Part shown: positions 29,594-35,929 of the stretch, piece by piece | How the letters are laid out: every line of letters starts with the position of its first letter | Position numbering within the stretch: the stretch's first letter is position 1 | IMG/VR virus record: IMGVR_UViG_3300021399_000098 | Strand: one strand, 5' to 3' | Length of the DNA: 64,000 nucleotides | From: a virus | Lineage: Duplodnaviria; Caudoviricetes | The notes under the pieces: model-generated | Told to the model about the DNA's origin: nothing | Seen by the model: the letters and a program-made list of their open reading frames with translations, nothing else | Databases searched by the model: none | Made by a program: the position numbers and the translations under genes

Positions 29594-30256
29594 TTAACCA
29601 ACCACAGGGCGAACCGAGTAGCCGCTCTCACGGACGCCATAGTACACGCCCTTGTTACCATCGTAAAAGTTCAAGTAGTAAGCGCGCTTACTACCACCAG
29701 GAGAAGAACCCCAACAGTAACCGTAACTGCCTACATTGCTCTGGCTACCATTGCTCCAGTTGCCAGCAGCAGGAATGAATAAAACAGCCCCATTGGTAGC
29801 TGTGAATGTGCCGCCATTTATTCCACTACCTTTGTAGTTTGTTACCCACTGATAAGTAGTATTAGCTGTCAATTCTTGCATTTGTGTTCTCGTTGGCATA
29901 TGCCAAGAGCCACCCCATACTTGGGATGCCGTATCGACAGAAGAATCTAGTGGGTCTTCTGTTCCACTATAAATGCTATCGCCACTTGTTGCTGCATACT
30001 GAGCAGCACCCTTACCGTATTGATAGTAATTACCATAATCAGTTTCTGATGAAGCGCCAACGTTCATCGTTGCCCACAATGTTCCACTTGGCAAGCCAAG
30101 GTTAACATAAGCATGACCATTATAAGGGTCGTAATCAAAGTAATGAACCTTACTGTTATCTTTTGTTAGAGACACATGTGGCCTGCCAAAATCAGTTGTT
30201 GCTGAAAAAGTAGCCAATTCAGCAGTTGTATCGAAATTACTTATAAATTTACCCAT
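29594..30256 (-). CDS. C-type-lectin-fold (Fib_succ_major/DUF1566-like) protein resembling a DGR target
   Basis: YVNLGLPSGTLWATMNVGA, WGGSWHMPT, LFIPAAG, C-terminal GYSVRPV. Confidence 0.8.
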   Translation of the reverse strand: MGKFISNFDTTAELATFSATTDFGRPHVSLTKDNSKVHYFDYDPYNGHAYVNLGLPSGTLWATMNVGASSETDYGNYYQYGKGAAQYAATSGDSIYSGTEDPLDSSVDTASQVWGGSWHMPTRTQMQELTANTTYQWVTNYKGSGINGGTFTATNGAVLFIPAAGNWSNGSQSNVGSYGYCWGSSPGGSKRAYYLNFYDGNKGVYYGVRESGYSVRPVVG

Positions 30257-31037: not shown

Positions 31038-32185
31038 TTAGATAAATATTTTATTTAAATCATTTGTATTGGCAGCTTTAAATGTTTCCTTATAAATTTC
31101 TTTTCTACCAACCTTTTTTAGTTCTTTGTGGGTTGGAAACAAACTTTTATACAATCTATCCATTGCATATATTGAATGATAACACACATTATGTTCCTTT
31201 ATAATAGTTCCTCTCCAAGATTGATAGCAGTTCCATATGTCGTTTTCTGTCATCCTACCACTGTCATACATTCTCTTAAATGCCTTTAGTCTCCTTCTCT
31301 CCCTAACTATTTTTTTCCTAGTTAATCTTTTCAATATTTTTCCATTTGGAAGTATGTTATATTTTATCTGTAGAAATGTAAATCCGTGAGATAGTTTGAC
31401 TACATGTGTTTTCTTTTTATTAATCTCAAGCTTGAGATATGTTAAAGTATTTTCTATCTCCGAAAGTAATGAATATAATTCCTTTTTGGATTTCCCTATT
31501 ATAAATATATCATCCATATACCTTCCGTAATATTTAACACCCTTTACCACCTTTGCAAACACATCTACAGGAGTAAGGTAGTACAATGCCAATATCTGTG
31601 GTGCTTCACTCCCAAGATTCAATCCCTTGTCACTTTTTGAACTGTTGTCTATCACATAGTTTATAAGAGATATTATGTGAGGATTTTTATCCTTTATTTT
31701 CGGATATATAAGTTGTTTCAACGTCTCATGGTCAATACTTTCAAAGTATTTCTTTATGTCAATAAGTAATATATATCCATCAGTGCCATTTTTATGTATG
31801 TATTTTCTTAACAGTATCTCAAACCTTTTTCTAGCAAAAGAAGTACCCCTATTCTTTATTGACGCATAGTTGTCATAAATAACGAAAGGTATCAACGAAG
31901 GAGTAAGGACATCAACAGTTAACACTTTTTGTACTATCTTATCCCTTACTATAGGGGCTTCTATATGCCTTATGTGACCACGTTCATTTAGGTAAAATTC
32001 AACCATCTTGCTTATGTTGTATTTTAAACCTAGGACTTCTTTCTGTAGCTCTAGATTATTGATGAGCAAGTTAGATATGTAACGTTGACTTGTTTCTTTC
32101 CATTTGCTTTGCTTTGCTTGATACTATCATATGCATATTTATTAAGCTTATTCAATTCAAAAAATTCTTCCAATGTATTATCCAT
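31038..32185 (-). pseudogene. DGR reverse transcriptase, frameshifted near the 5' end by an extra 5-bp repeat unit (380 aa if repaired)
   Basis: RDKIVQK, YDNYASIKNRGT, DIKKYFESIDH, LGSEAPQ, YGRYMDD, GFTFLQ. The ATG at 32185 is out of frame; deleting one GCAAA gives ...KQSKWKETSQRYISNLLINNLEL. Confidence 0.85.
32103..32117. repeat. (TTTGC)x3 microsatellite in the RT 5' region
   Basis: catttgctttgctttgcttg at 32101-32120. Confidence 0.95.
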
Positions 32186-32340: not shown

Positions 32341-32433
32341 GTTAATCGCAGCAACGTAATTGGTATTGTTAGCATTGTTATTGTTAGCATTACCATTGTT
32401 GTTCACATTGCAGGCATTAGAAGACGAAGCAAC
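32341..32433 (-). repeat. DGR template repeat (TR), 93 nt
   Basis: gttgcttcgtcttctaatgcctgcaatgtgaacaacaatggtaatgctaacaataacaatgctaacaataccaattacgttgctgcgattaac; 14 AAY codons in the target frame. Confidence 0.95.
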
Positions 32434-32464
32434 CTTACAGAACCAAACCTATATCATATAATTA

Positions 32465-32905
32465 TTATTTATTTTCGAGTGCTGTTTTAAATTTGTTACC
32501 GCTTTTTCTCCAAGCTTTAAGACTGTTTATCATCTTTGCAATAGTCTCTATGTATTCCACGTATTTATTATCATTAACCTTAAGCCTCATCATTATTCTA
32601 TGCAAATGAGTTAATATTGCATAGCAAGTGCCTATCGATTTTCCTATATTAGTTCTTCTCTCTTCATATTCAGTCACACAAGTAGGATATATAGAATTAG
32701 CTATCTTTATGTAAAATAATAACTTGTCTGTTAAATCTTCAAGACTCTTGCACCTAATGTCAAGGAATATATAGTTCCTTTCAATTAATTCCTTACTAGC
32801 ATAAAACTTGTGTTCAACAAGATTATCAATATTATCAGCCAATTTAAAATAAAGGCTCTCAAATTCAATACTACTTTTATTTCTCTTATTCTTTACAACA
32901 CTCAT
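32465..32905 (-). CDS. avd: DGR accessory variability determinant (Avd-like four-helix bundle)
   Basis: MSVVKNKR, IANSIYP..EERR, C-terminal LKAWRKS; basic, 146 aa, between target and TR. Confidence 0.8.
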   Translation of the reverse strand: MSVVKNKRNKSSIEFESLYFKLADNIDNLVEHKFYASKELIERNYIFLDIRCKSLEDLTDKLLFYIKIANSIYPTCVTEYEERRTNIGKSIGTCYAILTHLHRIMMRLKVNDNKYVEYIETIAKMINSLKAWRKSGNKFKTALENK

Positions 32906-32938
32906 AACAGTCTATATTAAAAACATTTTTTATTTATC

Positions 32939-32965
32939 ATTGCTACCCCACAAGAGGGTAGCAAT
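32939..32965 (-). other. DGR target-recognition hairpin downstream of VR
   Basis: attgctaccc-7 nt-gggtagcaat, perfect 10-bp stem about 20 nt after the target stop; a second stem (atccttttt/aaaaaggat, 32976-33001) spans the stop codon. Confidence 0.75.
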
Positions 32966-32986
32966 TCTGAGTAAAATCCTTTTTCC

Positions 32987-35929
32987 TTACGCAAAAAGGA
33001 TAAGCGCAGCAACGTAATGGGCACGGTCAACACCGCGATAGTCAGCAGCACCAGTGTCGTGCACACGGCAGGCACTAGAAGACGAAGCAACATCTCTAAG
33101 CCAAGGGTATCTGCCCTCGAATATCTCGTTCATATTGTACACTCTGAAAACATCAAGCTGACGGCAAGCTTCGCCAGTATCATATCCACTTGAACTCCAT
33201 ACAATGCTTCCATATACTTGTACCTCTGATAATGCGCATATCTTTTGGTCAGCATACCAAGCCCAAGAAGAAGAACAACCTCCAGCATTACCAAATCTGT
33301 TATAGCCGCTTGTGTTAACTGCTGTTGAATATAACTTATAATGACTCTTTATATTATTACTACCAAGGTCTCCTTCAACATATGGTAGAACTGTGGTTTC
33401 TAAATAATATTGCAAGTCACAGCTAGCATAACCAGCAGCAGCCGTACCAGTTGTCCAAGTTCCGTCTGTTGAATGAGTGTTCTGACTTGTTGATGTACTA
33501 TTACTACTGTTCCAAACGTAAGTATCATTTGTGTCAACAATGATACCAATGTGGTTATAGTCCAAACGATTAGGTGTTGAAGTACCTTTCATTGTATTAA
33601 GTCCTGCTATAACATAGTTATATGTTTTTCCATTATTGGTTGTAGTACAATAGTCACCAACTCTCATTCCATATTTTTCAAGGTCTTGGTCAGCTACTGC
33701 CTTTTTCAAAGTAGATATAAATGTGGCTTTATCCCACAACTTTCTTGTTCTACGTCTGATTGTATCAAGTTTCAATTTTTCTTCACTTGTTAAGTGAATA
33801 TCACTATCTGCTACATGTTCTTCAGTAGGTGTTAATCTTTTATCTAAGTTTGTTAGTGCAGCAGCTACTGTTTCACTTTGCCCACTTAGGTCATCTACAG
33901 CAGTTTTATCAGCTTTATTTGACAATGCTGTATTCACTTGTGTTGCACTTGAATAACTACTTGTGTTTTGGAATGCCATTGTGCCAACAGCACCAGTCAA
34001 ACTGTTAATAGCAGTGCTTGAAGCTGTGATTGCATCAAGAGTAGACTTGTTACTATGATTGTGAGCACTAGTTGCAGCAGTATCCCAAGAAGATGTCTTA
34101 GCTGTTGTAATACCATCTAATACTGTCTTATTATCATGACTATGTTTAGCAGTATATGCTTCATCCCATTGTCCTTGCTTTAATGTTGTTGGAATAGAAT
34201 ATCCATCACTGAATTTAACATCGAACTTACCACTTTCTGTAATTGCTGTAGTTGCAGCAGAAAGACCTGTAGGAAGTCCAATCTGTACGCTAGTCACAGT
34301 ACCTACATTACTTGTCTTACTATTCCAATTGGTAATATCAGTAGAAGATATACCATCCAATACAGACTTATTACTATGTGTATGGCTATCAGTAGCAGCT
34401 CCATCCCAGTTACTTACCTTTGTAGATGTAATACCACTTATAGCAGCAATATTGGTGGCAAGAGAATCAAGGTTAGTCTTCTCAGTAGTTGACATATGTA
34501 CTGTGCTTGCTGTATGCGCAGTAAATGTAGAAGTATTAACCTTACCACTTGTAGCAGCCTCAATAGCAGTGTCTGTTTGTGCTGTGGTATAGTAATTATC
34601 AGCTTCAAAAATGTCACCGATATTGAGTTCAGTATCTGTCTTACCAGCTGCTGTATTCCAAGTAATTACAAGATATGTTGTACCACTCTTTGTTTCAAGG
34701 GTTACACTATCAACCATACCATCTACCAAGAATGTAGATGCATTAAATGATGACAATACACTACCAGCAGTATTCTTAAGCTGAATATAATGACTCTCAC
34801 TATCATAAGCTACAGTAACACCAACACCACTATAGATGTGTTTTGCTTCTATAAGGTTATCACTATTAGTTATACCAGTAGATACACCCTTTGCAGCAGC
34901 AGTACCAAGTGTAGGCTTATTCTGAATGTATGAATCAGCAGTTGTAGCTGTTTCTGTCCAGTCAGCTTGTACGTTTACTTCAGCACCACTAGCGATATTA
35001 TCAAGCTTTGTCTTTAATGCGTCTGTAAAGTCATTTGATGACAAGTCTTTACCACTTACTTTATCAACCTTATTACCTATAGCTGTATCTACAGCGCCAC
35101 TGTAAGTATTGAAATCAGAGGTATTAAGCTTGTTATCTACGCTATTCCACTTGCTCTTATCATCTGCTGTTACGTGTATAACTGAATCTGCTGTGTGAGC
35201 AGTAACAGTGCCACTAAGTGTATTAGTAGTAGCAGTAGTAGTATAAGCTGTCATTCCAGTTACATCTTGTTTACCACTAATGTCAGCACTTGTTAAATAG
35301 TTTTGTTCACCAACCCAAGTCTTAGTAGCCATATCATTCGTTACTGTTTGAACATAGGCACTTGTTGCAAATCCATTATCATTTACTAAGTCAGATGTCT
35401 TTGAAGGTATTGTTGGCTTGTCTGTAAGGTCATTGTAACTGCCGCTGAAATCAGACTTATTATTCCAGTTAGTCTTATCGGCAGCAGTAACGTGAATATC
35501 AGTGTTTGTAATATGGGTATTCACAGTACCGCTAACTGCATCTAAGTCAGCATCATTTGCCTTCAAAACAAAGGCTGTAGATAATTCAGTAGCACCACTT
35601 GTCTCACTTTTCTTGTAGTAATCGCTTAAATCTGTTGGGGTATATGCTGACGCATCTAATTTTCTACCATTAAGGTCATCAATTGCTTCAGTAACAGTTG
35701 CATCGTTGTTTGTGAACCCACTACCAAGTTTTTTCTCAGTATAATAATTGTCTGATGAGAATGTTGTTATAGCACTATTCTCATTTCTAATTGATATTGT
35801 TTCCACACCTTCAGCATAGTTAATGGCAATCTCACCATCCACCAATTTATCTGGAGATGGCAATTGTGGCAAACCATTAATCTTTAGCTTACTTTTAATG
35901 TGAGAAACGTGTTCAACGTTTTTTGCCAT
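32987..35929 (-). CDS. Tail fibre / receptor-binding protein, DGR target
   Basis: 980 aa, Thr/Ser-rich; GEIAIN N-terminus; H.H.NK..LD.I repeats; C-terminal lectin-like domain ending in VR. Confidence 0.85.
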   Translation of the reverse strand: MAKNVEHVSHIKSKLKINGLPQLPSPDKLVDGEIAINYAEGVETISIRNENSAITTFSSDNYYTEKKLGSGFTNNDATVTEAIDDLNGRKLDASAYTPTDLSDYYKKSETSGATELSTAFVLKANDADLDAVSGTVNTHITNTDIHVTAADKTNWNNKSDFSGSYNDLTDKPTIPSKTSDLVNDNGFATSAYVQTVTNDMATKTWVGEQNYLTSADISGKQDVTGMTAYTTTATTNTLSGTVTAHTADSVIHVTADDKSKWNSVDNKLNTSDFNTYSGAVDTAIGNKVDKVSGKDLSSNDFTDALKTKLDNIASGAEVNVQADWTETATTADSYIQNKPTLGTAAAKGVSTGITNSDNLIEAKHIYSGVGVTVAYDSESHYIQLKNTAGSVLSSFNASTFLVDGMVDSVTLETKSGTTYLVITWNTAAGKTDTELNIGDIFEADNYYTTAQTDTAIEAATSGKVNTSTFTAHTASTVHMSTTEKTNLDSLATNIAAISGITSTKVSNWDGAATDSHTHSNKSVLDGISSTDITNWNSKTSNVGTVTSVQIGLPTGLSAATTAITESGKFDVKFSDGYSIPTTLKQGQWDEAYTAKHSHDNKTVLDGITTAKTSSWDTAATSAHNHSNKSTLDAITASSTAINSLTGAVGTMAFQNTSSYSSATQVNTALSNKADKTAVDDLSGQSETVAAALTNLDKRLTPTEEHVADSDIHLTSEEKLKLDTIRRRTRKLWDKATFISTLKKAVADQDLEKYGMRVGDYCTTTNNGKTYNYVIAGLNTMKGTSTPNRLDYNHIGIIVDTNDTYVWNSSNSTSTSQNTHSTDGTWTTGTAAAGYASCDLQYYLETTVLPYVEGDLGSNNIKSHYKLYSTAVNTSGYNRFGNAGGCSSSWAWYADQKICALSEVQVYGSIVWSSSGYDTGEACRQLDVFRVYNMNEIFEGRYPWLRDVASSSSACRVHDTGAADYRGVDRAHYVAALILFA
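32999..33091 (-). repeat. DGR variable repeat (VR)
   Basis: Colinear with TR: 22 mismatches in 93 nt, 21 of them at TR adenines; encodes VASSSSACRVHDTGAADYRGVDRAHYVAALI. Confidence 0.95.

Follow-up and report, generated by a model that had tools for sequence, protein, structure and literature searches.

Known systems and the architecture of the cassette

The closest described relative of the element studied here is the DGR of Bordetella phage BPP-1, in which mtd with its variable repeat (VR) is followed by avd, the template repeat (TR) and the reverse transcriptase (RT) gene brt. TR-to-VR differences in this system are adenine-specific, and the VR lies at the C-terminal end of a tail-fibre-like target. 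A second point of comparison is provided by SSR contingency loci, such as the CTCTT tract of Neisseria opa and the tetranucleotide repeats of Haemophilus, where gain or loss of a single unit inside a gene causes a frameshift and a truncated product. Documented pentanucleotide contingency tracts, including that of opa, comprise about seven or more units, and the threshold for high-frequency slippage lies at roughly five or more. A third system is the DGR of Quimbyvirus, whose RT is frameshifted and split across overlapping frames, which the authors read as programmed frameshifting, and in which near-identical genomes nonetheless carry adenine-specific VR substitutions (Benler et al. 2021, PMC8008677).

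We analysed a stretch of 64,000 nucleotides (the window) from the IMG/VR virus record IMGVR_UViG_3300021399_000098. Its DGR cassette exhibits the BPP-1 order of target with VR, hairpin, avd-like gene, TR and RT. The VR (33001-33104, minus strand) closes the 3′ end of a fibre-like target gene of 980 aa (32987-35929), and an inverted repeat with 21-nt arms and a 7-nt loop (32928-32976) is located just downstream of both. An intact avd-like accessory gene of 146 aa (32465-32905, minus strand) lies between VR and TR. It has no Pfam match and its match to PHROG 3206, 'Avd protein of DGR', is weak (E 0.001); its length and position are the same in all sister phages. The TR (32343-32446, minus strand) is 95-99% identical to the TRs of the sisters. 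Mismatches between TR and VR fall at TR adenines in 20 of 21 or 23 of 24 cases, depending on the alignment span. TR, avd-like gene and inverted repeat are thus all present, in agreement with the original prediction that these elements are intact. As in BPP-1, the cassette encodes an RT that is homologous to bRT and conserves its catalytic and fingertip residues. Unlike BPP-1, the window represents a rumen phage of roughly 400 kb, its Avd match is weak, its RT shares only about 24% identity with bRT, and a duplication of 5 nt interrupts the RT frame after codon 26.

The one TR/VR mismatch of the window that does not involve a TR adenine pairs a C in the TR (32372) with a T in the VR (33030), where the TRs and VRs of the sisters have C. 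It may be an ordinary point mutation that was not overwritten, which would fit a VR that is no longer re-homed; as evidence it is weak, because the intact-RT sister L041 also has a non-adenine mismatch. The TRs themselves vary at adenines. L040 and L041 (TR 2737-2856) carry AACGCTCGC where the other sisters have AACAATAAC, and the window TR has AATACC in place of the AATAAC of the sisters. These differences suggest occasional adenine mutagenesis of the TR or VR-to-TR conversion.

A duplicated repeat unit breaks the RT reading frame

An open reading frame of 44 codons (ORF1, 32051-32185; MDNTLEEFFELNKLNKYAYDSIKQSKANGKKQVNVTYLTCSSII) starts on the minus strand with the ATG at 32185 and ends at a TAG (32053-32051). 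Its first 26 codons are the true N-terminus of the RT (MDNTLEEFFELNKLNKYAYDSIKQSK), with which the N-termini of 19 relatives align, and the other 18 run out of frame to the TAG. The RT frame, shifted by -1/+2 against ORF1, begins at 32123, directly behind a TAG (32126-32124), and runs without interruption to its stop at 31038; the first codon in it at which translation could start is the TTG at 32069. The shift between the two frames is located at a perfect TTTGC tract of 3.4 units (32103-32119, 100% matches in Tandem Repeats Finder), i.e. (GCAAA)x3.4 on the coding strand (AAGCAAAGCAAAGCAAA), which is one unit longer than the intact alleles of the sisters. The coding strand across the tract reads AAG CAA AGC AAA GCA AAT GG.

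Removal of one unit in silico fuses ...YDSIKQSK to WKETSQRYISNLL... and joins the 26 N-terminal codons to the remaining 354, giving a protein of 380 aa that is colinear with every relative. The original prediction had the frame from 32185 shifting at three GCAAA units and stopping after 44 codons, a two-unit version restoring an RT of 380 aa, and the extra 5-nt unit as the sole lesion. The frames are as it described them, unit removal and colinearity confirm the restored protein, and the RT part from TGG (WKETSQRY...) to the stop (31038-32102, minus strand) contains no further lesion within the window. This part matches Pfam RVT_1 (E 4.4e-18) and the PHROG reverse transcriptase family (E 1.8e-65), and the RT proxy P0002 matches the bRT structure chain 8ub7_A (PDB 8ub7; E 1.6e-9). 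ORF2, the RT frame of the window, retains F66, R74, I76, D138, G182, Q187 and YMDD, and it keeps all catalytic residues and all residues invariant with bRT. The enzyme is therefore of the DGR/group-II-like type, with the catalytic YxDD and the conserved finger and palm residues; its reading frame, unlike that of a functional element, is interrupted.

No pentanucleotide repeat in the window is longer than the RT tract. Two such tracts reach at least 15 nt, where Markov-1 shuffles predict 0.11. The number of 12-nt tracts, 7, is in line with the 5.8 predicted by chance. Among pentanucleotide tracts, only the duplicated 17-nt version is thus unusual, and its 12-nt precursor is not.

The tract in related phages

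N-terminus and RT lie in a single frame in 19 of 19 relatives from IMG/VR and JGI metagenomes (47-77% amino acid identity), which have the motif M..LEEL..LN..Y(D/E)..(K/R)QS(K/R)WKE.TQRY in common. A large protein collection holds dozens of further RT relatives of 378-382 aa, among them 91%-identical proteins.

A two-unit tract, AAGCAAAGCAAATGG, is present in the nearest sisters (L007, L037 and L039-L044), which amount to eight loci in three lineages. In L038 and L050/L051, two of the five sister lineages, the sequence is AAGCAGAGCAAA, and a synonymous CAA>CAG change interrupts the repeat. More distant relatives have CGT CAG AGC CGA and no repeat; the tract is missing once amino acid identity falls below about 77%, and relatives at 71% or less all lack it. 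In the window it derives from the codons AAG CAA AGC AAA (K-Q-S-K). Since the tract varies among relatives between two units, a CAG-broken form and no repeat, it is an incidental outcome of the ancestral codons AAG/CAx/AGC combined with AT drift and not a conserved element. No alleles other than two or three units were seen among the sampled relatives. A megablast search of the cassette against GenBank phages gave no match, nor did exact pattern scans for the tract with one to five units in IMG/VR or GTDB genomes.

A recent, probable loss of RT function

Our data make it quite probable that a recent slipped-strand duplication of GCAAA knocked out the DGR RT, as one case of a recurrent loss and not through a selected switch. 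The chance 12-nt tract AAG CAA AGC AAA would have gained one GCAAA unit by slipped-strand duplication, and this would have shifted the frame of the RT gene after codon 26 in a jumbo phage from sheep rumen. The complete RT would no longer be made, and translation could only reinitiate at TTG 32069 or ATG 32006, giving products that lack the N-terminal extension. cDNA synthesis, and hence diversification of the VR, would most likely be switched off, and the VR at the fibre tip would stay frozen in its latest state. Losing one unit could, in mechanistic terms, restore the frame, and nothing in the data points to such reversion being favoured or frequent. The lesion itself, one exact extra repeat unit, is of the slipped-strand type proposed in the original prediction, and the simple pseudogenisation that was listed there as an alternative is now favoured, as relatives lose the RT by unrelated lesions. 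One observation against a mere knockout is that the break coincides exactly with the one sizeable pentanucleotide repeat that the gene contains, as it would in a contingency locus.

The DGR of close sisters is active. L039-L043 share an identical intact RT, and the 317 nt upstream of their VR cores are 100% identical, whereas the cores themselves are only 70-81% identical to one another. All but one of the TR/VR mismatches in these phages fall at TR adenines. Because the flanks of the VR are identical while the cores differ in an adenine-specific manner, the pattern indicates that diversification is ongoing in the sisters that keep an intact RT.

The substitution pattern of the window RT cannot be told from that of its sisters. 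Substitutions specific to the window comprise 8 synonymous and 3 non-synonymous changes, and those of the sisters 46 and 22, respectively (Fisher p = 1). This sister-like pattern, together with the retention of all bRT-invariant residues, shows that the frameshift is recent relative to the divergence of the lineage. The recency of the lesion had been proposed earlier, in part from the heavily mutated VR; the substitution pattern upholds the date, and the argument from the VR does not follow.

The products still expected from the broken gene would probably be inactive. The only in-frame starts past the break are TTG 32069 and ATG 32006, which align to bRT residues 42 and 63. In bRT, the N-terminal extension forms the interface with Avd and contacts and positions the template-primer duplex, including through the conserved Lys29 (bioRxiv 10.1101/2023.10.23.563531). 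Restart products would lack these contacts to Avd and template and are for this reason expected to be inactive, a prediction that is transferred from bRT, only about 24% identical to the window RT. A tblastn search of the window found no second RT that could act in trans. A split open reading frame alone is no proof of inactivity, because in Quimbyvirus a frameshifted DGR RT coexists with VR variation (PMC8008677). Loss of RT activity and a frozen VR would nevertheless be the most likely outcome.

As matters stand, the lesion is unremarkable, a loss-of-function indel in an accessory gene of a phage. The annotation of the window is corrected correspondingly: its DGR is a DGR by descent that should be scored as probably inactive.

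Alternative explanations

The original prediction interpreted the tract as a contingency switch, in which reversible gain and loss of GCAAA would alternately silence the DGR, so that a successful receptor-binding variant is fixed, and reactivate it. The lesion is indeed exactly one unit and in principle reversible by slippage, a two-unit tract is found in three sister lineages, and the remainder of the cassette is intact. Like SSR contingency loci, the gene is truncated by a one-unit change within its coding region. Unlike them, it carries a very short tract of two to three units that arose from ordinary codons; the present 3.4 units (17 nt) and the ancestral 2.4 units fall below the lengths of documented contingency tracts and below the threshold for high-frequency slippage. 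Nor is the tract conserved beyond coding need, as it is broken by a synonymous change in L038 and L050/L051 and absent from more distant relatives. Length polymorphism among close genomes amounts to two units plus one clonal three-unit sequence, and no other off allele was found at the tract among the sampled relatives. The precursor occurs at chance frequency in a window that is not SSR-rich, and RT losses elsewhere in the clade are due to other lesions. The tract thus behaves like a one-off indel hotspot. We consider a selected switch very unlikely, and we give equally little credence to a weaker form of it, in which the short GCAAA tract would serve as a reversible slipped-strand switch of low frequency, with lineages alternating between diversifying and freezing their receptor-binding tip. 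The proposal of phase variation is therefore unsupported, and the lack of conservation of the repeat in related RTs is one part of the outcome that the original prediction had named as speaking against it. The literature searched for DGRs with phase variation or slipped-strand mispairing contains no precedent for an SSR-switched DGR; reads showing reversible switching between two and three units would make this the first SSR-controlled DGR.

A sequencing or assembly error that conceals a true sequence of two units, the other alternative raised at the outset, is very unlikely. The three-unit allele is confined to the window, a 71-kb Logan contig of SRR873602 (L035) and a contig of JGI 3300002641 (L036); the two contigs match the window at 100% identity over 6969 and 1971 nt, respectively. 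The truncated RT is present as a 322-aa gene call (P0001) on a 401-kb record and on both contigs. Exact look-ups of the avd and 212-aa neighbour proteins, aimed at other copies of the strain, led back to JGI 3300002641 and Logan SRR873602 and to one short ENA contig that ends before reaching the tract. Three units are therefore seen in one clonal sequence only, and the reads of a single study may underlie the JGI, Logan and NCBI/ENA copies alike, which would favour an error. Against it stands the base-for-base agreement of three different assemblies. Substitutions predominate in the error profile of Illumina data, in which exact insertions of a 5-nt unit are not the main type, and the 17-nt tract is shorter than assembly k-mers. 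SRR873602 stems from an Illumina HiSeq run (2x150) on the unamplified library of a low-methane sheep-rumen metagenome (PMC4158751), so that a PCR-free Illumina origin is established at least for the Logan copy. Because insertion of an exact 5-nt unit is atypical of Illumina or de Bruijn assembly error, the three-unit allele is a genuine consensus, beside which a two-unit minority allele may exist in the sample, and not an assembler artefact.

It is likewise highly improbable that a programmed or leaky -1 frameshift in the overlap of ORF1 and ORF2 (32123-32054), for example by tRNA-Lys slipping on A_AAG at GGA AAG, yields some full-length RT and leaves the DGR partly active. The Quimbyvirus RTs, which lie in overlapping frames while their VRs vary (PMC8008677), provide a model for such recoding, and an A_AAG motif is present inside the overlap. 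However, none of the 19 or more relatives has the frameshift, which means that no recoding site is conserved here, and the protein made by slippage would carry A-N-G at the position of a W that 18 of 19 relatives conserve. The overlap contains no X XXY YYZ slippery heptamer, and the RNA downstream of it folds no better than shuffled sequences (z = -0.23), leaving no sign of a stimulatory structure. Unlike in Quimbyvirus, the split is unique to one sequence whose relatives have a single open reading frame, and recoding signals were not found in the window. Readthrough of TAG as glutamine in the window was rejected, as ORF1 and the RT lie in different frames and the RT frame contains TGA and TAA upstream of 32126.

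Probable recurrent decay of DGRs in the clade

Other members of the clade have lost their RT by different lesions. The gut-metagenome sister L050/L051 (L050:466-1435) carries an independent RT pseudogene, with a CAA>TAA change in WKETS*RY and a poly-A frameshift (A9 versus A7) in LTRKKI. In P0025 and P0127 the RT has internal or C-terminal frameshifts. The 220-aa gene of the window (29594-30256), a homologue of the target of a second DGR in L039, matches the VR and TR of that element (VR2 and TR2) at 67-70% in its 3′ end, and neither TR2 nor its RT (RT2) was found beside it. Its 3′ end would thus be an orphan VR left behind by loss or relocation of the cassette. The lesions of L050/L051, P0025 and P0127, together with the missing second cassette of the window, point to a recurrent decay of DGRs by unrelated lesions and not to a regulated switch. 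The window provides one more case for the view that DGR RTs are lost time and again among the rumen phages of this clade, while close sisters keep diversifying their fibre tips.

The second DGR of L039 comprises VR2 (L039:5410-5599), TR2 (L039:6396-6585) and RT2 (L039:6682-7140). TR2 is 190 nt long and 85% identical to VR2, with differences at TR adenines, and the target is an Lcl_C-like protein.

Several minor observations concern the RT genes of other phages. Cluster members of 77 and 98 aa (P0122, P0123, P0126 and P0134) suggest that C-terminal RT fragments have been called in several samples. In one sister (P0125, 598 aa, Logan), the RT stop is lost, and the reading frame continues into the downstream DUF4376-like protein of 212 aa to give a fusion. 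The window RT contains no in-frame TAG codon at such positions; in L001 (~930-1000), L003 and L015 (near the RT start), in-frame TAG codons occupy the positions of conserved glutamines (TR*SRWKE, VT*RY and KL*EDV), which indicates recoding of TAG to glutamine in those IMG/VR and metagenome phages.
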